From Mytilus edulis (lineage: Eukaryota), in assembly GCF_963676685.1 (NCBI RefSeq), contig NC_092355.1:11222001-11286000 (forward strand): a DNA stretch of 64,000 bases, in the 5' to 3' direction. How positions within the stretch are numbered: position 1 is the first letter of the stretch; each line of letters opens with the position of its first letter. Made by a program: the position numbers and the translations under genes. Below are positions 14,425-54,954 of this stretch, one piece after another. The notes under the pieces were generated by a model that saw nothing but the letters and a program-made list of their open reading frames with translations, was not told where the DNA came from and ran no database searches.

Positions 14425-17400
14425 AGTCCTTTTCGCAAATGCATTTAGTCATGATTTTACTTCATATATCCTGTTCTTCTTTACGACCAGTTTTGATTGT
14501 TTTTGTCTTAACATCAGAGGACAATAATATGTCAGTTCGATTTGTAGACAAATTATTGTTCATCCTTTACAAAATCACAATTTTTGTAATATGAAATGAA
14601 ATATATTTTTTACTTAGCTAATTTTCTTGTATTAAATTATCTAGAAAAGAAAGTTCCTTAATATATACAAGGTTAATCATAAACGACATCCTAATGATTA
14701 ATTCTCAGAGGCAGCATATACATATGATTTGAATAGGGATGGGTTGGCGCTCTGATTTAGTAATGTTTAATGAAAAGTTCATCTTTGTCGTCAGACAGAA
14801 TGCCAATGTTATGTAATTGTTTGAAATGTATGATTCCCTTGTCAAACATATTAATCGATTAGCAAGATTATAACAAAATAATTCGATTATAACTAATTGC
14901 AGACCCATCATTTTATCTGATATATTTAAACACCAGTAAAGCAAAATCAGTAACAAATCCTAAGTTAAAACACGGAGATGTTTTTGTATGCGAACATTTG
15001 CTATGTTGGCTCTCTTTTAATATTATGCAGTAAACGTGTTTAATGTTTGAATGTTTATGACTTTGAAAATAATAATGATTAGCAATAAAAGTATTTTGAA
15101 TCATACAATCAAGTTTTAATAATGAGCAGAAAGCTTATGAGTTTAAAAACAGGCAGTTACTTTTGTTTCTATAATTATTTCGATTTATTACCTTAGTCAT
15201 GTTGGTTGCAATGAATTGCATTGATTTTCCAGTGAAATAAAAACCGATAATTTCACATACAGAAGGACGCTGTGAGGCACAATCAGTCTACCTGCCACAA
15301 GTGGAAAAAATGACACATTTGGTAAATGTACATATCAGGTACGGCATAATGTTGGCTTTTGCAAATAAAAATAGACAAACAAACCATATAAATTAGGTGA
15401 TGACCAATATAATATTTTTATTAATTGCAAACAGTGACAAAATGTACTTCTTATATTTCCTTCTTAAACATGACACTTAAAATTCAATTGATGACAATTG
15501 TTTAATTCATATAAAATGTTGATTCTGTTTTAACTAGTTCTTACTACCTTGTTTATCAATGGCACAATTGTTTATAAATTTTGTTAGGTTGATTACCAGT
15601 CTTTAGCTCATCAACATTCAAGTGGTAAGTGCTTCTTTACTGGCATGATGTATTCCATATATGTGTTTGCAATGTATAATCCGTTTAGTCATATAGCTCC
15701 CAAGCTTTATGTGTCCTTGGAAATTCCTGTTTTTCGAATATATAAGTTTGGGCGTTGATCGTTAATATTTATCTTGAAAACTGAAGCGACACACTAAATG
15801 ATTGTTATGGTCATGCATTTCAATATGCTATTTAGTTTTCCTTTGTTGAACAGATATCAGTGTAACAATGATTAAGATTGCAACACAATGCTGTATTCCA
15901 TTTTTTTTTTAAGTTTAAGCTATTTGTCTGTTTGTTCGGCTAACACATTGTGTCAAGGAGATATTATTGTGTGGTACTCTCAGACAAAAGAGCAGGGTAT
16001 GTGTCTATGAAACCAGGTTTAATATCCTGTTTCCTACATACGAAAATGCATGTATCAGATAATAAACATTACCTTTTTCCATTTGTTAGATGTTATCAAT
16101 TTTTGATTACTCCGTTTCATGGTGAACTTCCCATTGTATAAGTTACCTTAGAGGGTAGTTTTTCTGTTTTTTACTACATGTATTCATTAGTTTAACATTT
16201 ACCCTTGTAACGTATGACATCATTGATAAATGTGTGATGACACTTGACACTGACTTTTAATTAAGATCAGACAACTTGTTAACGCTCCATCCATAGGGAT
16301 TTAAACCTGATACATGAACATTGAAAATTGATTATATATACGGAAAAGTACTATCTGTCTAACTAAGGATGGCATACAATTATTTATGGTATTACATTTT
16401 TTCCCCGTTACTTCAAACCACAACGTTATTTTGATGAATTGCCAAATTAGTTCTGATGTCAATGTCCAGCTATAATATTACGAAGGACATCATCAACGAC
16501 ATCTACCAGAGGATAATACCAAGTCTTAATAACGGAACTAAGATAAATTTATTTAGCAGGTTATGAATTATTACTTTTATCTTGTTTCATTGAAATTCTA
16601 TTTAAGTTAGGAATATGACAGTGGTTATTCATATATTTGGTGTGTATCAGATTTTGATTTTGAATTTGATCACTGGCCTTTTGTTATGAATGTTGCCCGG
16701 AGTTTGGGAACTTTGTTGGTTATCTTTCTACTGTGTTACAATAGCAACCAATTTTTGTCGTTGTCGAATCTACTTGTAGTGTGACAAGGTTCTGTTTGTA
16801 TTGATGATAGTATATAACATGTAAAAACACTAGGTGTATTATCCCTGCTTCCTTGTCATTTAATAAAAAATAATAATAATCAGAAGGTATTATACTTCAT
16901 ATATTTGTTTGAGATTGACAATAAACAGACATTATGATGACAGAGCATACATCTTTTTTTTTCGGATAAAAAAAAAGAAGCTGAAGAAATTTTAATTGAT
17001 GTTGTTTTGATTATAAATTTTGATATCTTAACAACAAATTAGTTTTAACACGAGGCATTTGATTGATAAACATTTTCTGTGCAAAAAAGACCTTCCTTGC
17101 TTATTCGTCTAATTTTGGTGGCAAATTCAAACAGGACGGGTATCCCTAGAAAACCTTTGAATTTATGATTAAGATGCATATCTTTTTTAATGAGGTTTGT
17201 GTTAATATTTCGTCAGTTGTCCGTTTGTGAAACTTGCTTTTCTATTCATAGTCTTAAAATTGCCATGGTATTACTATGTTTCACCCTAACTTGTGAATTT
17301 TGAATGATCATTTGGTACCATCCACCTCTTTTGGTATTATGAGGAAAACTGGCTGTAATTGTGATAAATTATTTTGGTCAAATCGTTGTTATTGGATCAT

Positions 17401-20400
17401 TATTCAATTAAATATTTCAACTCTTAGTATGAAGACGAACCGAAAACGAGACTTAAAGACAGTCCATCACAAATACAACTCAGGACCAGTAAAACTGATA
17501 TTACCCGGCCATATTCTTTATGTGCTTGTTCTAAGTCAACAGCCTGTTATTCAATGGTTTTGGTTGGTTTCTTTATATCAATTTTATTTTCCGTTCATCA
17601 TTTTATACATGCAACACACCCTTAGTACGAATTCTCCAGCATTTGTAATTTTAGGGCCTTGTATAGCTGACTTTGTGGTACGGGTTTTACTCATTGTTGA
17701 ATACCTTGCGGTGACCTACGTTTGTTATTTTGTGTGTAATGTTGGTATTTTGTTGAGAGTTGTTCATTTTGGCATTCTTTTCAAGGTATATAATAGAAAT
17801 CACATGATAATGGTTTACCTGTATACAGGCTAAAAGTTTCGCTTTAAAATGTATACCGCATATTTGTGTCCGGAAATTCATCAGCATATTCTACCACTTC
17901 CCTCTGATCGTCACTACAATGCTTAACATTGGAATTAACTTTTTTATTCACATGAATTATTTGTTTTTATTGCATCATTCCGTGTGTTTTATCTTTGATA
18001 TCCTTGTTTTCCATTATCTGTAAATGTCATCCATTACCTGGGGATACGTATTTCTATAGTTATTATCACCTTCATGACCGTAAAAGTGGTATTGTTTAAA
18101 TAATTTATAAAAGCCTGCATGACGAGGCTTGCTAAATTACTGTCAATTTACAAGGTCAATGTATATTACGACGTACATATGATTGTTTTCCCCCAAGAAT
18201 GTTTTCCTTCAAGAAAGTGTTTCCTGGTAAATATCCCTCAGCTGCATTTACGTGTAAATCTAACGTCAGCTAACATTGGCTGCGTTAATTTAAAAAAAAG
18301 AATATCAATAAGTGGAATAACATTGATATCGAACTCGGAAGCAAATTGAAAAAGGAAAGTCTCTTATCCAGTGCCGTAATCAAACGCCCAAACACATGAA
18401 ACGAACGAATAACAACTTTGATATTCCTGACTTGGTCCAGGCGTTTTCTTATGTAGTAAAAGGTGGATTAAACCTGGTTTTATAGTTAAATAAAAATCAA
18501 ACTTGAATGACAGAAAAAATGAATTCGTACGCCTATATGCCTTAGAAGAAAGAAATGTGTTCTAACATTCGGATTCCAAAAAGAGAATCGCAAGATATCA
18601 AAGGCACAATCATTAGTATATAGCAAACGACAATGTTATGCTAATGTCTTACTCTGTAATTGTCAATGTAAATGTGGATGTACTGACTTTCTTCATCTTG
18701 TAGAGTACATTAGTAGAAAACTTTGCTTTGCGTTGCATATTAGACGTAAAACACTATTATTAACATTACCGACGAATAAAAAGAAAGGGTTACTTGCAAC
18801 CACTCAGTCAAAGGCGTGAATATTTAAAATCTAAATTGTTCTGTTTCAGATTTTTAAAAAGTGTGAGAAACATTTGTGGGTGTTATTTACACCATTATTT
18901 ATTCTACTGTGAAACCAGAGGTGTGTCTTTTAAAGGCAGGATATTCGTACAAGACAAGACACTGCTTAAACCAGTGAATGCAATTCCTGCAGTGTTTGTC
19001 AATTATCTTAATTGGTTTCTCAATTGGATCGTGAGGTCACATCGATCATGCTGCATATGTGTAACAAAAAAAAAGGAAACGGAAATCGTCACAATGTCTG
19101 ACATTTTTACAGCGAATTTGAACGAGTAAAATACGTATTTGGCATTGTTTTGGGAACTAACTGCATAACATCATTATACTTGTTTTGCAGGGTTATGAAA
19201 TTGTAGATAATGTTTTTTCTTAGAGAGGGGGGAATTAACGGCAATTCAGGTCAATTGAAAAGAAAAATCCGTTCATACGTGTTAAACACTCTGTTATTTT
19301 AAAACTCTGCAAGAATTGACAACTTCTGTCATACATTTACGGTCTGTCTCTTTATCTGTTTCGTGTTGTTTTATTATACGAAACAACTGTTCACGAATAC
19401 AGCAAATGCTATCGTCTTTTCGATTGAGCTATATACAAACTATATAAGTATACACATATTTTCAATATTATAATATCAATTATTATAATATCAATTATTA
19501 TAATATCAATTATAATATTGCTGTAAGCCCTTAATTATTTTAATGATTAATTTTATATAGTTAATACTTATCTAAAATGCTTATACTACTATTTCTCCAA
19601 TAAGCACAGATTTTTCAATAACATGTTTATACATGTTGAATTAAGAAAAAAGTGTGATTGCAACAAATCTTAAATTTGAACTATTTTTCACTCTGATTTC
19701 ACAAATATTGGTATTAAGGATATATCCGGTTGTGCTGTTTGTTGTTTTTTAGTGATTTACAGTTTCATTTGCCCAAACAATGCATTGTTAAAAGTAAGTT
19801 GATAATTAATACGAAAACAATTGATACTTATACGAAATAGTATATATGACTATCACGAGGTTACTGGAAATCAATATTGAATCAAAGTATAAAGTAGTTT
19901 TTTTTTAATTGTAACAAGCAATAACGAATAAGTCAATCTCTTTTAATTGATAATATTGATAGGTATTTTATTATTCCTATACCCAAGTTTTCAAAACGTC
20001 GCGTCATTCCCTTAAAACATTAAATACTTTCCTCACAAACTAACATTTAAGTTAACACTTGGTTGCCACATTGGGCTTATGGGATTAATTAGATAGTATT
20101 TTCCTTTTAAATCATGTGGTCGACAGACAAACGAGATTAAAACCAGCTGTTTAATTGAGACATGCAGCTATTCATAGGTATACACCAATATAATTACATC
20201 TGCTACTCTTATACTTGTAGTTATTTTTTAAAATGTGTCTATCACTATGGTTAATATGAGGACGTTATTGCTTTCGAAGTTGATAAGGTTCGTATAGAAT
20301 ATATTAATACTTAACAAAACTACACATTGTTTCAACAATGAACACGGATGGTTTATAAGTTCGATGAATGGCATTTATTTCTGTGAATTGAAGCAAATTA

Positions 20401-24846: not shown

Positions 24847-27800
24847 AGTCCTTTTCGCAAATGCATTTTGTCATGATTTTACTTCATATATCCTGTTCTT
24901 GTTTACGACCTACTGTTATTTTTGTCTTAACACCAGAGGACAATAATCTGTCAGTTCGATTTGTAGACACATTATTGTTCATCCTTTACAAAATCACAAT
25001 TTTTGTAATATGAAATGAAATATATTTTTTACTTAGCTAATTTTCTTGTATTAAATTATCTAGAAAAGAAAGTTCCTTAATATATACAAGGTTAATCATA
25101 AACGACATCCTAATGATTAATTCTCAAAGGCAGCATATACATATGATTTGAATAGGGATGGGTTGGCGTTCTGATTTAGTAATGTTTAATGAAAAGTTCA
25201 TCTTTGTCGTCAGACAGAATGCCAATGTTATGTAATTGTTTGAAATGAATGATTCCCTTGTCAAACATATTAATCGATTAGCAAGATTATAACAAAATAA
25301 TTCGATTATAACTAATTGCAGACCCATCATTTTATCTGATATATTCTAACACCAGTAAAGCAAAATCAGTAACAAATCCTAAGTTAAAACACGGAGATGT
25401 TTTTGTATGCGAACATTTGCTATGTTGGCTCTCTTTTAATATTATGCAGTAAACGTGTTTAATGTTTGAATGTTTATGACTTTGGAAATAATGATTAGCA
25501 ATAAAAGTATTTTGAATCATACAATCAAGTTTTAATAATGAGCAGAAAGCTTATGAGTTTAAAAACAGGCAGTTACTTTTGTTTCTATAATTATTTCGAT
25601 TTATTACCTTAGTCATGTTGGTTGCAATGAATTTCATTGATTTCCCAGTGAAATAAAAACCGATAATTTCACATACAGAAGGACGCTGTCCATGTGCCGA
25701 GGCACAATCAGTCTACCTGCCACAAGTGGATAAAATGACACATTCGGTAAATTTACATATCAAATGACTTTCAGGTACGGCATAATGTTGGCTTTTGCAA
25801 ATAAAAATAGACAAACAAACCATATAAATTAGGTGATGACCAATATAATATTTTTATTAATTGCAAACAGTGACAAAATGTACTTCTTATATTTCCTTCT
25901 TAAACATGACACTTAAAATTCAATTGATGACAATTGTTTAATTCATATAAAATGTTGATTCTGTTTTAACTAGTTCTTACTACCTTGTTTATCAATGGCA
26001 CAATTGTTTATAAATTTTGTTAGGTTGATTACCAGTCTTTAGCTCATCAACATTCAAGTGGTAAGTGCTTGTTTACTGACATGATGTATTCCATATATGT
26101 GTTTGCAATGTATAATCCGTTTAGTCATATAGCTCCCAAGCTTTCTGGATCCTTGGAAATTCCTGTTTTTCGAATATATAAGTTTGGGCGTTGATCGTTA
26201 ATATTTATCTTGAAAACTGAAGCGACACACTAAATGATTGTTATGGTCATGCATTTCAATATGCTATTTAGTTTTCCTTTGTTGAACAGATATCAGTGTA
26301 ACAATGATTAAGATTGCAACACAATGCTGTATTACATTTTTTTTTTTTAAGTTTAAGCTATTTGTCTGTTTGTTCGGCTAACACATTGTGTCAAGGAGAT
26401 ATTATTGTGTGGTACTCTCAGACAAAAGAGCAGGGTATGTGTCTATGAAACCAGGTTTAATATCCTGTTTCCTACATACGAAAATGCATGTATCAGATAA
26501 TAAACATTACCTTTTTCCATTTGTTAGATGTTATCAATTTTTGATTACTCCGTTTTATGGTGAACTTCCCATTGTATAATTTACCTTAGAGGGTAGTTTC
26601 TCTGTTTTTTACTACATGTATTCATTAGTTTAACATTTACCCTTGTAACGTATGACATCATTGATAAATGTGTGATGGCACTTGACACTGACTTTTAATT
26701 AAGATCAGACAACTTGTTAACGCTCCATCCATAGGGATTTAAACCTGATACATGAACATTGAAAATTGATTATATATACGGAAAAGTACTATCTGTCTAA
26801 CTAAGGATGGCATACAATTATTTATGGTATTACATTTTTTTCCCCGTTACTTCAAACCACAACGTTATTTTGATGAATTGCCAAATTAGTTCTGATGTCA
26901 ATGTCCAGCTATAATATTACGAAGGACATCTACCAGAGGATAACACCAAGTCTTAATAACGGAACTAAGATAAATTTATTTAGCAGGTTATGAATTATTA
27001 CTTTTATCTTGTTTCATTGAAATTCTATTTAAGTTAGGACTATGACAGTGGTTATTCATGTATTTGGTGTGTATCAGCTTTTGATTTTGAATTTGATCAC
27101 TGGCTTTTTGTTATGAATGTTGCCCGGAGTTTGGGAACTTTGTTGGTTATCTTTCTACTGTGTTACAATAGCAACCAATATTTGTCGTTGTCGAATCTAC
27201 TTGTAGTGTGACAAGGTTCTGTTTGTATTTATGATAGTATATAATATATGCTTCCTTGTCATTTAATAAAAAATAATAATAATCAGAAGGTATTATACTT
27301 CATATATTTGTTTGAGATTGACAATAAACAGACATTATGATGACAGAGCATTGCTCTATGGTCGGGTGGTTGTCGCTTTGACATATTCACCATTTCCTTT
27401 CTCAATTTTATCTTCTTTTTTTTCGGATAAAAACAAAAGAAGCTGAAGAAATTTTAATTGATGTTGTTTTGATTATAAATTTTGATACCTTAACAACAAA
27501 TTAGTTTTAACACGAGGCATTTGATTGATAAACATTTTCTGTGCAAAAAAGACCTTCCTTGCTTATTCGTCTAATTTTGGTGGCAAATTCAAACAGGACG
27601 GGTCTCCCTAGAAAACCTTTGAATTTATGATTAAGATGCATATCTTTTTTTATGAGGTTTGTGTTAATATTTCGTCAGTTGTCCGTTTGTGAAACTTGCT
27701 TTTCTATTCATAGTCTTAAAATTGCCATGGTATTACTATGTTTCACCCTAACTTGTGAATTTTGAATGATCATTTGGTACCATCCACCTCTGTTGGTATT

Positions 27801-30510
27801 ATGAGGAAAACTGGCTGTAATTGTGATAAATTATTTTGGTCAAATCGTTGTTATTGGATCATTATTCAATTAAATATTTCAACTCTTAGTATGAAGACGA
27901 ACCGAAAACGAGACTTAAAGACAGTCCATCACAAATACAACTCAGGCCCAGTAAAACTGATATTACCCGGCCATATTCTTTATGTACTTGTTCTAAGTCA
28001 ACAGCCTGTTATTCAATGGTTTTGGTTGGTTTCTTTATATCAATTTTATTTTCCGTTCATCATTTTATACATGCAACACACCCTAAGTACGAATTCTCCA
28101 GCATTTGTAATTTTAGGGCCTTGTATAGCTGACTTTGTTGTACGGGTTTTAGTCATTGTTGAATACCTTGTGGTGACCTACGTCTGTTATGTTGTGTGTA
28201 ATGTTGGTATTTTGTGGAGAGTTGTTCATTTGGCATTCTTTTCAAGGTATATAATAGAAATCACATGAGAATGGTTTACCTGTATACAGGCTAAAAGTTT
28301 CGCTTTAAAATGTATACCGCAAATTTGTGTCCGGAAATTCATCAGCATATTCTCCCACTTCCCTCTGATCGTCACTACAATGCTTAACATTGGAATTAAC
28401 TTTTTTATTCACATGAATTATTTGTTTTCATTGCATCATTCCGTGTGTTTTATCTTTGATATCCTTGTTTTCTCTTATCTGTAAATGTCATCCATTACCT
28501 GGGGATACGTATTTCTATAGTTATTATCACCTTCATGACCTTAAAAGTGGTATTGTTTAAATAATTTAGAAAAGCCTACATGACGAGTCTCACTAAATTA
28601 CTGTCAATTTACAAGGTCAATATATATTACGACGTGCAAATGATTGTTTTCCTTCAAGAATGTTTTTCTTCAAGAAAGTGTGTCCTGGTAAATATCCCTC
28701 AGCTGCATTTACGTGTAAATCTAACGTCAGCTAACATTGGCTGCGTTAATTAAAAAAAAAATATCAATAAATGGAATAACATTGATATCGAACTCGGAAG
28801 CAAATTGAAAAAGGAAAGTCTCTTATCCAGTGCCGTAATCAAACGCTCAAACACATGAAACGAATGAATAACAACTTTGATATTCCTGACTTGGTCCAGA
28901 CGGTTTCTTATGTAGTAAAATGTGGATTAAACCTAGTTTTATAGTTAACTAAACGTCAAACTTGAATAACAGAAAAAATAAATTCGTACACCTATATGCC
29001 TTAGAAGCATGAAATGTGTTCTAACATTCGGATTCCAAAAAGAGAATCGCAAGATACCAAAGGCACAATCAAACTCATTAGTATATAGCAAACGACAATG
29101 TAATGCTAGTGTCTTGCTCTGTAATTGTCAGTGTAAATGTGGATGTACTGACTTTCTTCATCTAGTAGTGTACATTAGTAGAAAACTTTGCTTTGCGTTG
29201 CATATTAGACGTAATACACTATTATTAACATTACCGACAAATAAAAAGAAAGGGTTACTTGCAACCACTCAGTCAAAGGCGTGAATATTTAAAATATAAA
29301 TTGTTCTGTTTTAGATTTTTAAAAAGTGTGAGAAAAATTTGTGCGTGTTATATACACTATTATTTATTCTACTCTGAAACCAGAGGTGTGTCTTTTAAAG
29401 GCAGGATATTCGTACAAGATAAGACACTGGCTAAAACCAGTGTATGCAATTCCTGCAGTGTTTGTCAATTATCTTAATTGGTTTCTCAATTGGATCGTGA
29501 GGTCACATCGATCATGCTGCATATGTGTAACATGAAAAAAAGGAAACCGAAATCGTCACAATGCCTGACATTTTTACAGCGAATTTGAACGAGTAAAATA
29601 TGTATTTGGCATTGCTTTGGGAACTAACTGCATAACATCATTATACTTGTTTTGCAGGGTTATGAAATTGTAGATAATTTTTTTTTCTTAGAGAGGGGGG
29701 AATTAACGGCAATCCAGGTCAATTGAAAAGAAAAATCCGTTCATACTTGTTAAACACTCTGTTATTTTAAAACTCTGCAATAATTGAAAACTTCCGTCAT
29801 ACATTTACGGTCTGTCTCTTTATCTGTTATTTTATCATACGAAACAACTGTTCACGAGTACAGAACATGCAATCGTCTTTTCGATTGAGCTATATACAAA
29901 CATATAAGTATACACATATTTTCAATATTACAATATCAATTATAATATTGCTGTCAGCCCTTAATTATTTTAATGATTAATATAGTTAATACTTATCTAA
30001 AATGCTTATACTACTATTTCTCCAATAAGCACAGATTTGTCAATAACATGTTTATACATGTTGAATTAAGAAAAAAAGTGTCATTGCAACAAATCTTAAA
30101 TTTGAACGTTTTTTCACTCTGATTTCACAAATATTGGTATTAAGGATATATCCGGTTGTGCTGTTTGTTGATTTTTAGTGATTTACAGTTTCATTTGCCC
30201 AAACAATGCATTGTTAAAAGTAAGTTAGTGATAATTAATACGAAAACAATTGATACTTATACGAAATAGTATATATGACTATCACGAGGTTACTGAAAAT
30301 CAATATTGAATCAAAGTACAAAGTAGTTTATTTTTAAGCAATAACGAATAAGTCAATATCTTATATTTGATAAATTGATAGGTATTTTATTATTCCTATA
30401 CCAAATTTTTTAAAACGTCGCGACATTCCCTTAAAACACGTAATACTTTCCCTCACGAACTAACATTTAAGTTAACACTTGGTTGCTAGATTGGGCTTAT
30501 GGGATTAATT

Positions 30511-45793: not shown

Positions 45794-47049
45794 AATGGAA
45801 TAAACTTGTTATTGTTAAAGCTTTTGTTCTAGCAGTTAATGTGTATTGATTAGAGGCACCAATATGTTTCTATAAAAACTGGGTTTTTTTATAATTTGAC
45901 TAAACAATACCTACGCCAGTTTTTTTGCTAACAATGTGATTTGCAAAATGGCAACCGATACTTTATCGTTCGAACCCGTCTTGATTTCTTTTTTTTTTTT
46001 TTTAACATTCATAAATTCTTTATTGCACTCTTTGCTGTTTTAACAAATTACTTAATGTACAGCATTCCATCAAGTATCCCTGTTACATACAATTATAACT
46101 GATATCCAGGGAGAATATACAGTAAAACTTATCTTATTTTATACATAGCCATTTAATACATTTCTATTTTCTATCATTACTTTATAAATATACATAATAT
46201 CATATAAAATCTTATCGAAGTACTTAAAGATGTTACAGACCATGTGTCGTGAAATTTACGGAGAAAAATCCGTTATCGGTTCTTTTAATAGAATTTTGAA
46301 CCATATGAAAATATGAATGAGATACAGCGTGGTTACTGTTTCTGTTAACTTTTGTTAATTCGTACCTTTGGATTTATACAATTCTTTGGAAGTGTTTGTT
46401 AATACTAAAAAATGGTAAGTAAAGTATTCTCTTTGTATGTTTCTTATAAGCTTTTGTCATGATTTTTGATTTTACAAATTTGACCCAAATTTTATTACCT
46501 GTGAACAGTCTGTGACCTGTCTGTGACCTTTATATTGTAAACATTAGAATTATCCTTATTATTCTTGTACATAATATGTTCATATAGTTTCACAAAAAAA
46601 AAAGAAAAACATCATTAAACATATGAAAATGTACATAATCTTTGTTGTACAGATATAATAGAATACATGTTGAATATTTATTTTTTTTACCTTTATCCCC
46701 CCTTTTGTTTCCAAATTATTTTTATACTTCACTTTCATGCATACATAACTTACATACCTACATACATGCATTCACACTTACATATATATTCATTCACACA
46801 TATGCTCTAGTTACATACATACATGTCCACACACATATAACATGTATTAAGACCTTTACAAAAAGATGCATTCACATACATTGTACATGTATCTACATGT
46901 GTTTTCATACATTTTTTGTACATAGACACCTATACTTATATTATAGTATCATATTTTTTTACTAGTCCACTGGTGAAATATTGAAAACAAGTACACAATA
47001 TTAACATTCTAGAACATACATTCTGTTTTTTTCCAAGAGTTAATTTTGT

Positions 47050-50000
47050 TTATTTCAAGATCTGCAACACTTTTTTAAACATTTTGTTTATTTCCATATT
47101 GGCCGTATAATATAATTCAACTGTACCTGAGATTTCATATTTAAAAATTTTCACTATATCTATTTTTTTTGCCTTATTATTGGATTTATAATTTGATTTA
47201 TAGACTGAAAAAAACATTAAACTCAGCAAGTGATTGAGTCCAAAATAAGCATCATCATGAATCTTGTATCCTATTACTAGAGAGTGTAGGCTTATAACAT
47301 GTTTGTCAATACCTATTTTGTTAAATATATCTCTCATTGATCTCCAGAAGTTTGTGTTATATGCGCATGTGATGAAAAAATGTTTGTAGTTGTCTTGTTC
47401 ATTACAATATGCACAAAGGCTGTTTTCAGAAATTTTCCATTGAAATAATAGCTCTTTATTTGCTAAGATGAAATGCATTAATTTCCACCTGAACATCTTA
47501 ATTTTATTATCTTTTAAGTATTCAAAAGTGAATTTTATCGTGTCTTTGAATTCACTATTTATATTTCCTGTATGTAATATCTTTTCCCATTTCAAAAAAC
47601 CAATGGGTGTTTCTGTTTTTATTCTACTTTGCACTATCTTATAAATATCTTTATTATTAATGCCGAGTATATCCTCATGGTCTCTTAATCTGATTTTTTC
47701 TCTGTTAATATTTACTTTAGTTTTGAATGATCTCTCAGTTTTAAGCTTCTCCTCCCAGTTATTTGGTATGGCTTTTTTAAGTTTTGAAAATTCAGCAATC
47801 CAATTACCTTTGTTTTTTAGTTTTAAATTGATTACTTTTTCTGATATTTGTCCTCTATTGTCAATTATGTCATTTATAAATAGAATATCACTTTCAATCC
47901 ATTTATCAAAAAACAGACATTGTCCTTTAAATTTTATCAAGTTATTGCCCCATATTATTTGCTTTCTGATCTCTAAAAAGTTCCATGTTTTATTATTTTT
48001 AGCTTCATTCAGATTTACCTGAATCCATGATTTTATCAGTTCTTGATAGAATTACGGTGTATTGTTCCATATTTTTTTGTCAATTAATTTTATATTTCTT
48101 ATATTTATCTTGAAAATTAGCAAATTTTTGCCAAACTTATTCAGGTATAGTTTAGGCAACACTGACCAGTTAGCATTTTCTGATTGTATTATTTTTTTAA
48201 TCCATTTTATATGTATTGACATTATATAAGACTCCAGATCAATCATTTTTAATCCCCCTTCAGCATAATTTTTTGTTAATATTGACCTCTTTATTTTATC
48301 TTTTCTGCCATTCCAAACAAACCTATAAATTATATTGTTGATGATTTGCAACTTATCTTTAGTAATAATACCATTAGTAGCAAAATAAGTTAAATTTGGT
48401 AGCAGAAGAGCTTTCACAATTAAAATTTTTCCAAGCAATGTTAAATTTCTTTTTGACCATCTGTCTACAAGTTTTGTAATTTTATCCAAGATTTTTTCTA
48501 TGTTCAATGTTTGACATTCCTTATTATCATATCCAAAATAAATACCTAGACTTTTGACTGGTTTATTTGTCCAGTTTATATTTTCATATTTATCTTTACT
48601 GCTTTTTAATCTCCCTAACCATATTCCTTCTGTTTTATTCCTATTAAGTTTCAGCCCTGATAGACTTCCAAATGTCTCTATTATACTGAGAGCTAGACTT
48701 ATATCTTTACGAGACTGAAGAAATAGTGTTGTGTCGTCTGCTAATTGACAGATTTTTAAATTACAAGATTGTCCGTCTAATTTTATTGTTATTCCCTTAA
48801 GTTCTTTATTTTTTCTTAATCTTATGGCCATTAATTCAACAGTTATAACAAACAGTAACGCAGAAATCGGACACCCTTGTCGAATACCGCGGTATATTTT
48901 AAATGGACCTGAGACCCACCCATTATTCAAAATACACCCTTTAATATCATTATACATAGTTTCAACCCATCTGATAAATCCACTTTTAAATCCAAAATTT
49001 TTGAGAGTTTCTGTCATAAAGATCCATTCTAAGGAATCAAAAGCCTTACTGAAATCTAGAAATAGTACTGCTCCTTCTATGTTAAATTTCTCTGAATAAT
49101 CAATTATGTCTTGAATTTGCCTTATATTAAAACCAATATATCTATTCTTTACATATCCAGTTTGGTCTAGACTTATAATAGATGGTAAAACTTTTTTTAG
49201 TCTTTGTGCTAACACATAAGCCAGTAGTTTTGTATCTATGTTAAGTAATGTAATTGGACGGTAATTATTTAATGAAAGCGGGTCATCTTTTTTATATATT
49301 AAGGAAATCGCACCTTTTTTTTGTGAATTGGTAAGTTCTTTTTTCTCATAATTATTATTGAATACTTTAACCATAATATTTTTTAAATTATTCCAAAATT
49401 GCCTATAAAATTCCACCGTCAGACCATCCAGGCCAGGGGATTTATTTAACTTCATTTTAAAGATTGCTTCTGTACATTCTTTCTCAGTTACTTCCCCTTC
49501 ACATTGATTGCTTTCTGATTCATCTAGCTGTTTTGATATTTCTGTTTCTGTTATATACTTCTTAACCTCATTATCACAGGGATTAGTTGATTCATAAAGT
49601 TTTTTATAGTATTTTACTTCTAACTCTAAAATTTTATTTTGATTTTTAGTAGCCAAACCATTTTCATCATATAATTCAGTAACAACTTTTTTTGTTTGAC
49701 GACTCTTTTCTAGCCCCAAAAAATATGCACTATTTTTTTCACCTTCTTCAAACCATTTTACCCTTGACCTTATTTTTTGACCTTTAATCTTATCTTTATA
49801 CAGAGTGTCTAACTTATTTTCAACATTCTGTATTTCTTTTTGTAATGTTTTATTTATATCAGTACTATCATTTATTTTATTATTAAGGTTATTCAACTTT
49901 GTTTCTAGAACATTTATCTCATCTTTTCTTACTTTAGCTTTTCTTTTACAATAGTCTAAACTTGCATCCCTTACTTCTATTTTCAAATTATCCCAAAGAA

Positions 50001-50869
50001 TCCCCAAATCATCACAGTTGGTTAATTCTTTTTCATATTTAGATATTAGCTTTTTAATAACATAAACATATTCTTCATTGTTCATTATGCTAGCATTTAA
50101 CTTCCAATACCCCCTTCCTTTATTTCCTCTTTCAGTATTTATTTTGAGTGACACTGCATTATGGTCAGTTATTTTTTGGACAATAGGTCTAATATCACAA
50201 TTTTTGCATTTTTTTTGTACTTCTTTAGAAACAAAAAAATAATCAATTCTGGTAGCTTCTGTTCTATCTTTCCTACACCAAGTAAATTGTCTAGTATTTT
50301 TATTTTTATTTCTCCAAATATCAATTAGTTTACATGATTTTATAAGCCCGTTTAAACTTGTTACAGGTTTATCAAATTTTTTGGAAGATTTAGTTTTATT
50401 TTTTGTATCTAGCAGTGACCAAATGTCATTAAAATCACCTCCTAGAATGACTTGCCCGAGTCCGTATTTATTAATAAACACTTTTATTGTTTTAAAGAAA
50501 CTATTTCTTTCTCTTAATCTGTTCGGAGCATAGATATTAACTAATGTGTATTTAAATATTTTCATCAATTTCAATATTAATCATAATGACTCTCCCTTCT
50601 AAGTCTTTATGTTCATCTATGTATTTGAATCTGGTTTTATCTTTTATCCATATCGCTACCCCACGTGAATTGCTTGTCCCATCGCTTCTAAAAAGATTTT
50701 CACCAAATTCCTTTTCTAATGTGAACTTCATTTTATTTGTAAAATGGGTTTCCTGTATGAATAGAATATCATTTTTTTGTTGATTCGACCAGCTTACAAT
50801 TTTACTTATTTTTTCAGGTTGTTGCAGGCCATTGGCATTGACCGTGCTTATATGTAGATTATTCTTCAT
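47050..50869 (-). pseudogene. LINE ORF2 (APE endonuclease, reverse transcriptase, C-terminal zinc finger), ~1270 codons, one frameshift and one nonsense codon
   Basis: EN motifs TVNANGL, FIQETH, NIYAPN, GGDFN, RIDYFF, TDH; RT motifs KSPGLDG, YRPITLLN, LDFSKAFD, GIRQGCPIS, LADD; CAYC..H..C at the C-terminus. 1-nt frameshift at ~50555; in-frame TAA at 48054-48052 followed by FYQELIKSW in the same frame as 47940. Confidence 0.95.
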
Positions 50870-50875
50870 TTTGGA

Positions 50876-52277
50876 TTAAAAAAAAATTTGATTGAGCGTT
50901 TTATCTGGTAAGTACCATTTTCTAATCATAGTTTTCAAAATATTTTCCATATATAATATACAGCTGTTGCTATACATTTGTATATCATTTTTATACTTTG
51001 CTTTTTCATAGGGCTTTTTATTCATTTTTTGGCAGAAACCTTTTACCATATATGTAGCATTTTTATAACTTTTAAATGTATGTTTACAGAAAGGTTTTAA
51101 ATGGCTTTTTCTTTTCATATACAGGTATATTTCCTGAGTATTTACAAAATACGCTTCACTGATTCTTACGGATTTAAATTGTATCGATGTACCTTTAAAC
51201 AATTGTCTAGCTTTTACTACCGGCGATTTTTTATTACGGTTTATCCTACATTTATTTAAATTTGCTTGCCTCTTTACATATGTTCTAGATTTTAACCTAC
51301 TGTTATTAATAACTCTTCTATTGAGTCTAATGTTTAAGGCTGAATCGAATTTTGATGATTGTTTCCATTGTTTTAATGATTTACACTCATTATAAACTAT
51401 GTTATAAAATTTAATAGACAACCATTTAAGACATTCGTCAGTAGATCTTGTTGCAAGATACAAAACTTTTGAAATTGATTTAATAGTCCGTTCAAGGTCG
51501 AATGACCTATATTTACTTGCCCACGTGACACTGTATGTAAACACAAGCACGTGTTGACACACTTTTTTTAACCACAAAATAATGCATGTAAACTTAGGCG
51601 CTTTTTGGCACAATATGCAGTTATCAGTACTCTTTTCATCATAAATATGATAAGATAATTTTATCACAATACATATCTCTAGAACGTATATCATTAGTAT
51701 TAATAGATATAAAAATGTCCATACATAATAGCATACATATACATATAAATTTCTTATAACAAAAACATGTGATATATAGTATACTGTTTTTCTCAAGTAC
51801 ACAGTTTGAAAAATAGCATTTTTAGAGCTATTACTATTAGGCAAAATATTAAAAACCTTTTCTGAAGCTAATCTGAGTATTGAATGTGTGCTTCTTATAT
51901 ATTTTACAAACAAATTTAACATTATTATCATTTGACAAGTCATAATTCGCTTTGAATAGAAAAGATTTGTTTTACTCAAATTTATTAAATGTAATTTATT
52001 CACTATCTTAGTACACCTTTGTTCTATATCAGAATCTTCATATTTTATTTTTACTTTTTTTCTTTTTCAGGTTAAACATTTCAAACAGGATTAACTTCAG
52101 TAGAGTTAAAGAATCTGTTGAAACTAGACCTTCAATTCTCTTCACAACTTGCTGCAATAGAATACAGCTTACATCAAATTTACAGATCAAACATTTTAGA
52201 TAGTAAATACTGGATGATATAAATAAAAACAGTGCTGTACAAACTATTTTGTGAGACATTTTAACATGGCAATGCAT
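50876..52277 (-). CDS. Extra inter-ORF reading frame of the LINE ('ORF-X'): 79 aa and 375 aa pieces joinable to ~466 aa; hydrophobic segments and a basic C-terminus; function unknown
   Basis: 396 stop-free codons (52066-50879) in very AT-rich DNA; stop is 6 nt before and in frame with the ORF2 ATG; the upstream 79-aa frame overlaps it across an A7 run (52061-52055). Confidence 0.65.
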
Positions 52278-52356
52278 TTTTTTTAATGTTTATATATAAT
52301 TTTTATTAAAAGTATTTCTATCTAAAGTTTGTGTTTTTAATATCATCATCATCAAG

Positions 52357-53027
52357 CTAGCGTCTCTTCTTTGGCTTCTTTGCATCTCTCGTTGCGTCAT
52401 GAAGATTTTCAGTTGGCGTCACAGGAGATTTTTCAACGTTTGGATTTTTATTTCTTAACTGTTTAGGCGTATCATTAATATTGTTAGTGCTGTCTTGATC
52501 TCTGCCTTTTGTTGATAGATATCTTGTTATGCTCTCTTTGTGGCCTGTGTTTTTGTTGTTCTTTGGTGTTTGACCTTGTTGTTTCTTGGACAACACACTT
52601 TGAGTTTCAAGGATTGACTGAGACTGTTCTGGATTGTTATCCGTCTTCTTACTTTCCTCGATACTCATTGACGGCTTTGTTATATTTTGGGAATTTCCTT
52701 CCTCAAGAGACTGATTGTTTTCACCTGTGCAATCATCATTGCTTTCGTCATCATCGTCATCATCATCATCATGATTTTCTTTGTTGAACGTGTTATTCAT
52801 TTCATCACCATCATCATTTACCTCACTATCAGAATTCATATTTTCTGTACATTCAAATTGTTTATGCCCAAATTGCCCACATTTTTTGCATTTCCAGCCA
52901 TTTGGACATTCTCTTGCTGTATGTCCTTCATCAAGGCACTTGCTGCATTTTGTACTTGGCCTTGTTGTATGAGGTTGACCATAATGATTTATGTTGGCCC
53001 AGTATTTCCCAACCTGCATAGTTGATG
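52357..53027 (-). CDS. LINE ORF1 C-terminal part (gag-like, two CCHC zinc knuckles), 5'-truncated
   Basis: HYGQP...CSKCLDEGHTAREC and CKKCGQFGHKQFEC (CX2CX4HX4C twice), acidic tract, basic tail KKPKKRR; frame is open up to the TSD. Confidence 0.9.
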
Positions 53028-54954
53028 CGTCTTGATTTCTTAATCATCAATATACTATTATCTTATACAATTTCCGGAACATTTTGCGGCTGGATCACTT
53101 TGTGGAATGTAATTATAGAAGTCTCGAACAGAAACAGAAATTGTCTTTAAATTGCAGTTTAGCTATAAAGTACCTTAGCTACACGTGATGTATGTTCTAT
53201 TCTTATAGAACTTGTTTACATACATTTCTAGGTAACAAGGGTATGTTTTTTTATAGAAGATAATGATTGTAAAATGCTATAAACGATCTTTACAAAAAAC
53301 GTAGTAAAATATATTTTCATTTAGTTATAATCAATGACAAATGTTAAAAATTTGAAAGCGCTTCCAAATTATAACCAGAATGCATTCAACGACGCGTAAA
53401 TCAACATCTTAAAAATAAGTAGATTTGTATCTTTATATGTGACTAAATTTTTAGGAATGCCCTGTCGGCTCTTCATTCCTATTTTGTTTTTTCGAAGCAA
53501 TAAAACATTTAAAAACTATTTCAAACGTTTGAACAGTTATTTAATTTGAGTATATGACCATGATGACATAGTGTATTAAATTTGACCATATATTTTGAAT
53601 TTGAACACTCTAAATTTTTTTGGGACCCTTTAGGATGCACTTGTGTAAATGCCTAAATTGCATATGCAGTCACTCTTCATTCAGGAAGTTTCGCAGAGAA
53701 TGTTATATTTCCCTGGAAAGGAGACATGCATTTCTTTTTTTTTTGCACTAATAAAAACATATAGCTGTGCAGCATATTTTCAAGTTGTACTGCCCTCCAT
53801 TTATACACATTGCAGGTTCGCACTGAATTGATCCATTAAATTTGACTCAACACCCAAATGTCTTCCAGTCCTCCTGAAAATTAAGTTAAATACATAGACA
53901 TTTTTATTTATATCCATTTAATTCTCAAATCAAGTCTTAATTTAAAAAAAAAAACTTTGCATCCATGGCAACAACTATGTAAACAGTAGCAGTATTTAAT
54001 GCACATTCAATTTCTCCCCAAAAGAGGCGTGACTTGCAAATCACACGTGATTTACAAAGTGCAACCTTTAATAACAAAAATACCGATTTCAGAGAAAACT
54101 TTTAAACACAAAATTCACCAGCAAATAGCAAAATCGATAGCTGAAACACATCAACAAACAACGTATAACTGTTATATTCTTAAATTGGTACAGGTAAATT
54201 ATCTTGTATAAAATGGTGGATTAAACAAGGTTTTATAGCTAGATTAAGGACTCACTTGTATGACAATTTGCAGTAGCGTAAAATTCCATTACATTGACAC
54301 CCAGGTTCCAAGGATATTGTAAAGGTCGTTACTCGGAGTTGTTTTTGTTGATTATTGTTTCACATTCGTGCTCGACCTTACGGATAATGCCTCCAATGAC
54401 AGATTCAAAACATGCTACATCTACTATCCGATTTATAATTCGAATTCTATTAATATATTTCCACTTGCCTCAAGTCAATCAGACGTAATACTTCTCTTCT
54501 ACTGTAATATCGACTACTTTTAGTTTAAAATTGGTCGCGTTAAAAATATAAATAACAATATCTACCGGCAATAAAGTAAATACCATTTCAACATTGTCAA
54601 AACAAACATAGTCTTATTTCCTTGACCTCTCGTTTGCCACACAAATATGAAAAGGATATATTAACTTCAACAAAACCTAGGGTTGGGCATGCTTAATGTT
54701 AACTTTAAATATATAAACGACTAAAAAGTGTACAAAACATCACCAATAACAGAAAATGAAACATTAAATGTAAAATATCTAAAAATATTTCGGATAACAT
54801 ATATCCTTCATCAGTAAGAATATAATGTCAAAGGAATCATAGCAATCTTCTTTGATTAAACTTTAACAATCTTGAAATGTATACAATAAAACAGTTAAAA
54901 CCTTAATTAAGATGATTGCACAATTGTAAAATATTTATAGGTAGTTATAGTATA

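Follow-up and report, generated by a model that had tools for sequence, protein, structure and literature searches.

The Mytilus edulis retrotransposon described here carries a third open reading frame between ORF1 and ORF2. This frame is real and clade-wide, it is held open by selection, and its amino acids evolve neutrally. Based on comparisons of element sequences, we suggest that it probably acts as a sequence-indifferent relay, which would bring ribosomes to the ORF2 start by termination-reinitiation. The sequence-only reading had proposed a three-ORF LINE lineage with an accessory, possibly membrane-anchored protein; the lineage stands, and a conserved protein of this kind is not supported.

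The element lies on the minus strand at 45991..53027 of the window (the whole 64,000-nucleotide stretch of contig NC_092355.1 that was analysed). According to its Pfam domains, target-site duplication and poly(A), it is an L1-group (Tx1-like) non-LTR retrotransposon copy of about 7.0 kb, poly(A)-tailed and 5'-truncated inside ORF1. A 14-bp target-site duplication borders its 5' end (53028..53041), and the identical 14-mer recurs after the poly(A) tail (45977..45990), so the middle frame does lie inside the TSD-bounded element, as first proposed. The remaining 3' half of ORF1 (52357..53023, stop at 52357-52359) encodes two CCHC zinc knuckles (Pfam zf-CCHC) and an acidic/basic tail. It is followed by an A-rich linker of 79 nt (52278..52356) with three other AUGs inside, and by the middle ORF, or ORF-X (50866..52277), which has 469 codons in intact sisters and is split in the window copy. 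The middle-ORF stop, placed as in the intact sisters, overlaps the ORF2 start codon as AUGA (50866..50869). ORF2 (47050..50869) encodes an APE endonuclease, a reverse transcriptase and a zf-RVT region and is broken near 50555 and at 48052. The 3' UTR of about 1.06 kb (45991..47049, AATAAA at 46019-46024, then poly(A)) is without a long sense frame and served as an internal control.

The N-terminal APE, RT and C-terminal zinc-binding region of ORF2 are all present (Pfam Exo_endo_phos, RVT_1 and zf-RVT), and its best match among solved structures is human L1 ORF2p (E 3.5e-93). The family also has the L1-type hallmarks of a poly(A) tail, variable target-site duplications and 5' truncation. Three intact sense ORFs, and not the two of a bicistronic element, were found in L052, L054 and L055; the three-ORF element is a variant L1 layout with an unchanged set of enzymes. 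The CCHC zinc knuckles found in ORF1 with Pfam are associated with the Tx1 clade (PMC5203782, in part). We call the element Tx1-like on the basis of this ORF1 type, the RT tree having included only elements of the Mytilus genome and the metagenome contig L189. One sister copy has an ORF1 with a 100% match (rounded) to a Mytilus edulis protein.

A DNA search of the 1.37 Gb assembly with the window element gave 22 matches, which correspond to about 14 copies of the home family. Three of them (L052, L054 and L055) are full-length elements in which none of the three ORFs is broken, and in L053 and L057 the middle ORF and ORF2 are likewise intact. The intact ORFs encode 420 aa (ORF1, from the first Met in L052), 469 aa (middle ORF) and 1271 aa (ORF2). 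In the intact copies, the middle-ORF AUG stands 79 nt past the ORF1 stop (window 52277), and the TGA overlaps the ORF2 ATG as ATGA. The window copy matches the full-length sister L052 at 99.4% over 6951 columns, with 30 substitutions in 6945 columns. Its spacer has one additional base in an A-run near 52060 and another in a T-run near 50880, its ORF2 is disrupted by four inserted bases near 50555 and by a stop at 48052, and its ORF1 is 5'-truncated. Given the two single-base insertions, the family frame comprises 469 codons, from the ATG at 52277 to the TGA overlapping the ORF2 ATG. The insertion near 52060 splits the middle ORF of the window into an 83-codon piece (52038-52289) and a 396-codon piece (50876-52066). 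The latter is the stop-free minus-strand frame originally noticed between the ORF1 stop and the ORF2 ATG (50869), and it was recovered as described. It is indeed longer than random AT-rich DNA allows: at a stop probability of 0.092 per codon, the chance of 396 open codons is about 3e-17, and the longest open run in 3000 base shuffles was 130 codons.

The contexts of the copies vary. Among L062, L060/L061, L057 and L079, one sister directly adjoins an L1-type element that differs from it, one is split by about 6 kb, one lies in a tandem repeat, and one locus holds three tandem endonuclease fragments. Elsewhere in the window there is a tandem segmental duplication of about 10 kb (~11.4-19 kb vs ~21-29.4 kb, 94-100% identity), which includes a frame of 170-178 codons at 17297-17833 and 27759-28268, and a satellite-like array at 690-1630 with units of about 170 bp and internal AACC/AATC microsatellites.

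An endonuclease search of the assembly gave 1693 candidates, the best 150 of which were scored, and 80 outside the home family were taken. Together with the home family, these relatives form 21 clusters at 85% nucleotide identity, treated here as families, with endonucleases 45-83% identical to that of the home family. The ORF1 end, the ORF2 ATG and a spacer of 0.5-2 kb were all available in 56 of 87 rows. In 48 of these 56 copies, which include at least one from every one of the 21 families, 80% or more of the spacer is taken up by a single sense frame; this frame is 200-476 codons long in spacers of 0.6-1.5 kb. The frame begins 19-248 nt after the ORF1 stop, and its own stop falls within 20 nt of the ORF2 AUG in 15 families and within 47 nt in all 21. 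The offset between this stop and the ORF2 AUG ranges from -47 to +38 nt among families, and all three phases occur (+4, +8, -39 and others). Each of the 20 spacers checked contains 17-41 AUGs. In 3' UTRs of similar composition (18 copies), the longest open runs reach just 30-104 codons. With three full-length copies bearing three intact ORFs and the frame in 21 of 21 sampled families, the proposed tricistronic LINE lineage that retrotransposes as a unit is borne out, and a nested insertion or an accident of one copy is ruled out.

A second search started from a distant element; the best 150 of 1223 candidates were scored and 40 were taken, and 9 more groups with a located ORF1 were sorted by eye. 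A filling frame is present in six of the nine, with 95-535 codons depending on the copy; in a seventh the filling is partial (62-68%), and the remaining two are unfilled. The unfilled groups (L160-L164, L175, L170-L171) have a non-CCHC ORF1 and spacers of 1.2-1.6 kb, in which a short frame of 54-125 codons terminates at the ORF2 AUG (+4 or +8); several short relay ORFs in series may be used there. These two distant families indicate that a filling frame is not the sole solution.

Three of 15 metagenome loci span ORF1 to ORF2. The contig L189, whose best match in the Mytilus assembly is 70%, has the three-ORF layout too, its frame ending about 90 nt before ORF2; the spacer frames of L196 are fragmented (90, 72 and 253 codons), and L194 has a spacer of about 500 nt without a filling frame. 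In the contigs L186-L188, L190 and L191, ORF1 is present and the contig ends at most about 210 nt beyond it; these could stem from RNAs with ORF1 alone or from assemblies that broke at the A-tract. Furthermore, 14 public runs (seven organism codes) and a sediment metagenome contain 87-96% of the words of L052:4700-6400, which suggests that the home family is of recent origin and occurs widely among the sampled hosts. No three-ORF Tx1/L1 element was found in literature searches, although Repbase, Dfam and the supplements of bivalve libraries may note the frame, and such an element is not mentioned in the available sections of PMC10294476, PMC5203782, PMC11203168, PMC7140322 and PMC1965478.

Selection on the frame was assessed with nine within-family pairs, one for each family with a diverged alignable partner, the other twelve having none or near-identical copies only. 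The middle frame gained 3 stops vs 48.1 expected, and the two shifted frames gained 49 and 45. When indels not more than 30 nt apart were merged, 34 of 38 indel events kept the frame in the middle ORF vs 8 of 26 in the 3' UTR. Scattered stops and frameshifts in sister copies, which would have spoken against the frame, were thus not seen. The middle-ORF AUG is kept in all seven partners fully aligned there (two of the nine are not aligned at this place). Among the shared variants of the home family there is one nominal stop, yet a second change in the same codon makes its carriers stop-free.

The amino-acid sequence is not preserved in the same way. Over 2833 codons of the nine pairs, omega of the middle ORF was 0.93 (LRT vs 1 = 0.64), with 0.95 for conservative and 0.91 for radical changes and 1.21 for the first 50 codons; in the same analysis, ORF1 gave 0.19, with conservative above radical changes. 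Purifying selection on the middle-ORF protein is contradicted by this value, dN/dS being about 1, an outcome which the sequence-only reading had itself named as refuting its proposal, although a pairwise omega may mask a mix of purifying and positive sites. An earlier fit to 23 pairs, from which near-identical and redundant ones had been dropped, gave a pooled omega of 0.97 for the middle ORF, 0.21 for ORF1 and 0.15 for ORF2. Variants shared by at least two of 14 home-family copies have nonsynonymous to synonymous ratios of 86:30 in the middle ORF, 13:23 in ORF1 and 34:86 in ORF2. The divergence of the middle ORF at codon positions 1, 2 and 3 (0.095, 0.100 and 0.104) is below that at ORF2 fourfold sites (0.12), so there is no overall excess over neutral. 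Amino-acid change in the frame vs shifted frames was 0.200 vs 0.193 in the middle ORF (p=0.48) and 0.102 vs 0.190 in ORF1. Retention in the true frame is no better than in the shifted ones for any amino acid, and this holds for Cys as well (0.15 vs 0.17); an apparent conservation of Cys and Trp (20 changes vs 38 expected) disappeared against the shifted frames. The codon-position base bias per 1000 codons is 1.1 in the middle ORF, 83 in ORF1 and 33 in ORF2. The base composition of the middle ORF by codon position is that of stop-free random DNA, and its amino-acid composition is like that of shifted frames.

Some spacers also hold signals at the nucleotide level. A hairpin was found at L129:3451-3511 and at homologous sites in families 9-12 and 15-20, located 117-237 nt after the ORF1 stop and directly behind an A-tract. 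In 11 sequences, 93% of cells are paired, 10 of 13 pairs have compensatory changes, and none of 500 shuffles scored as high, with the structure taken from RNAalifold on the very alignment that was scored. A cross-family N-terminal protein motif detected by blastp was reassigned to this RNA hairpin. A conserved block of about 30 nt, located 300-580 nt before ORF2 and containing AAGTCA and two TGAC(C) words, is shared by the spacers of L075, L084, L088 and L096; we presume that it resembles nuclear-receptor half-sites.

The spacer of the home family is also crossed by a spliced transcript, which appears to be antisense to the element. Splice joints were found in contigs of three studies (X8, X15 and X19; X15 and X19 are RNA libraries, and the RNA status of X8 is a guess), placed on L052 and mapped to the window by sequence. 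On the plus strand, an exon in the 3' UTR (46328..46414; L052 251-338) is spliced across ORF2 to a cassette exon over the ORF2 start and middle-ORF stop (50818..50907; 89 nt in L052, 4742-4830) by a 4403-nt skip in X8 and X15. A GT-AG intron across most of the middle ORF (50908..52070; 1162-nt skip in X8, X15 and X19) then leads to an exon beyond the spacer intron (52071-53027; L052 5993-7664). Since the contigs are strandless, the antisense direction is taken from the GT-AG ends. The runs X15-X20 have small word shares, and of these X15, X17 and X19 were used; the X17 contigs contain neither joint. No joint for sense-strand splicing of the spacer was present in the assembled contigs of four runs, and a loose end that X15 shows attached to the antisense exon had no match among the loci compared. 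The best antisense spacer donor lies 6-44 nt before the ORF2 AUG in 7 of 7 home-subclade families and in 0 of 14 other families; all seven have a GTRAGT donor and a pyrimidine-CAG acceptor in ORF2. A 3' UTR donor scores at least 4 in 16 of 18 copies. The longest AUG frame of the spliced form is 86 codons, and the promoter of the antisense RNA is either in the element or in host DNA.

The frame remains stop-free while its amino acids drift like non-coding DNA, and this points to ribosome delivery to ORF2 as its likely role, in place of a membrane protein. So many AUGs would block 40S scanning and let an elongating ribosome pass, which likewise makes the frame a likely relay. We suggest the following pathway. 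A ribosome finishing ORF1 would reinitiate at the middle-ORF AUG. Elongation through the middle frame would then carry the ribosome past the decoy AUGs, on which a scanning 40S subunit would be caught; the ribosome would next terminate on the ORF2 start and reinitiate there. The middle-ORF peptide would be a by-product and be degraded, and two low-yield reinitiations would hold ORF2p far below ORF1p. As termination-reinitiation demands, the upstream stop is at or near the downstream start, namely within 20 nt in 15 of 21 families. Against the relay, 1-3 other AUGs stand between the ORF1 stop and the first AUG of the frame in 12 of 20 families checked (three in the home family), and 6 of 21 families have a distance of 34-47 nt between the stop and the ORF2 AUG. 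These distances exceed the stop-start distance of about 30 nt in TURBS viruses (PMC10275272, in part) but are still inside the 63-nt spacer of human L1. Moreover, reinitiation after long ORFs is rare, according to the available text of PMC5972666, and the relay requires two such steps. The relay alone leaves the spacer length (0.4-1.7 kb) unexplained. With less support, the spacer may have escaped deletion because of its nucleotide-level signals (the covarying hairpin in one subclade, the antisense splice sites in the home subclade) or, alternatively, because damping of ORF2 is itself favoured.

It is also possible to regard the middle ORF as a working protein. The hydrophobic stretch (51662..51748, KD19 peak 2.65) and the Cys cluster (51584-51619) are present as the sequence-only reading quoted them; its weaker second hydrophobic stretch falls below KD19 1.6 in the intact protein, where only residues ~11 and ~187 reach that value. 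Hydrophobicity was judged by Kyte-Doolittle alone. In 6 of 6 sister rows, which differ by about 10% or less, the stretch has no new charges and three Cys are kept, one row altering only the third residue after the first pair. The home-family peak has P=0.02 vs amino-acid shuffles and P=0.07 vs random ORFs of local base composition. In the 21 families, the peaks differ in number and place, and the other families have no alignable counterpart of the home stretch; P<0.05 was reached in 5 families vs amino-acid shuffles and in 3 vs the composition null. These results count against a conserved membrane or envelope-like protein. The closest family, with an 83% identical endonuclease, shares only about 130 nt with the home spacer, at its 5' end, and blastp of its middle ORF against the home one gave no match. 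As the protein sequence is unconserved, the membrane-protein reading is poorly supported. A fast-evolving accessory protein, such as a sequence-tolerant membrane anchor of the RNP or an arms-race antagonist, in which mixed sites average dN/dS 1, is a rather improbable alternative. It agrees with the retained AUG start (7/7 aligned partners), with the short hydrophobic run followed by lysines at the start of many families, with the stretch and Cys cluster kept inside the home family and with the three families above the composition null; in addition, signal-anchor functions accept much sequence change. However, comparison with shifted frames reveals no conserved amino-acid class, hydrophobic-to-polar changes number 33 vs 38 expected, and frames of 95-535 codons have no common domain or topology. 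No homologue of the middle ORF was found among 5.8 billion proteins (lengths 257-821 aa only) or 1.84 billion representative proteins, no Pfam domain in five middle ORFs and no match in the Atlas (best 0.78); the AlphaFold single-sequence model, with a pLDDT of 39.8, is weak evidence in the same direction.

Other explanations accept that the frame is translated or treat it as an accident. Translation of the spacer could protect a long RNA against decay, nonsense-mediated or of another kind, or strip it of structure or bound proteins, ORF2 being expressed from an IRES or a shorter RNA. This would account equally for an open frame and a neutral protein, and the spacer does hold conserved nucleotide-level elements; for the long spacers of vertebrate L1, in silico work has predicted IRES-like elements (PMC5381506, in part). 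We nevertheless consider it unlikely, because it would explain neither the stop sitting at the ORF2 AUG in 15 of 21 families nor the short frames of the two unfilled families, which terminate at that AUG (+4/+8). Ribosomes translating through an IRES would also disrupt it and not help. It is very improbable that readthrough or programmed frameshifting yields a fusion protein, with ribosomes passing from ORF1 into the middle frame or from there into ORF2. The A-tract directly before the conserved hairpin in one subclade resembles a slippery site with its stimulator, and in copy L089 a 25-nt deletion has turned the middle frame and ORF2 into one continuous frame of 928 codons. However, the middle frame has its own stop, in-frame stops separate it from ORF1, and its phase relative to ORF2 varies between families; the occurrence of all three phases at this junction argues against a single programmed frameshift. 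We give almost no credence to a chance open frame or a nested insertion of one copy, which only the random-looking composition would favour, against a probability of about 1e-17 for one frame, its presence in 21 of 21 families and the identical layout of the unrelated contig L189.

The relay may have a wider application, which we put forward tentatively and hold to be doubtful in its full extent. Long-spacer LINEs might generally use a junk-coded relay ORF (up to 500 codons), selected only for openness and for ending on the ORF2 AUG, and in the home clade the spacer might also serve as an intron of an antisense RNA encoded by the element, which would mask the relay junction and adjust the output of ORF2. 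The translation of ORF2 in long-spacer L1-type elements is an open question in print, and a frame selected for openness alone offers a third, testable answer. It would be a natural example of a kilobase-scale ORF maintained because it is translated, whatever it encodes, and it bears on the interpretation of long neutrally evolving ORFs, of de novo gene birth and of 'third ORFs' in repeat libraries.

The mussel element can be compared with several known systems. ORF2 of mammalian LINE-1 is proposed to be translated by an unconventional termination-reinitiation (Alisch et al. 2006, as cited in the available sections of PMC5972666, PMC4072516 and PMC5381506). As there, ORF1 and ORF2 do not overlap on one RNA, and the decisive feature is proposed to be an upstream stop near the start of ORF2. 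The human L1 spacer, however, is about 63 nt long and is scanned, whereas the mussel spacer of 0.6-1.5 kb is filled by one selected frame, implying two reinitiations. A low output of ORF2p has been argued to be advantageous (PMC3894237, in part). Long AT-rich spacers persist unexplained in L1 of megabats, afrotherians, marsupials, fish, frogs and lizards as well (PMC4072516 and PMC5381506, available sections). In the megabat, removal of AUGs from a 445-bp spacer lowers retrotransposition about 3.3-fold (PMC4072516, in part), and reinitiation across long L1 spacers has been called inefficient and risky, an IRES being suggested instead (PMC5381506, in part). In the available text on these vertebrate L1s, small ORFs or predicted IRESs are reported in spacers of 257-1032 bp and no spacer-filling frame under selection for openness, unlike in the mussel.

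Antisense transcription within an L1-type element is shared with the mouse L1 antisense promoter and its spliced antisense transcripts (PMC3985663, in part) and with primate ORF0 (PMC5203782, in part); in the mouse, it limits retrotransposition, according to the same part of PMC3985663. Unlike in these cases, the mussel antisense RNA has exons within the 3' UTR and across the ORF2 start, and splicing removes ORF2 together with the greater part of the spacer. Termination-reinitiation has been proposed for L1 and SART1 (PMC5972666 and PMC10275272, in part). In SART1 (UAAUG) and in calicivirus TURBS, as described in the same sections, the stop overlaps or adjoins the downstream start, similar to the AUGA of the mussel home family. 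However, the upstream ORF of SART1 and caliciviruses encodes a functional protein, whereas the mussel middle ORF appears to be sequence-indifferent, and its stop moves between -47 and +38 nt around the ORF2 start.
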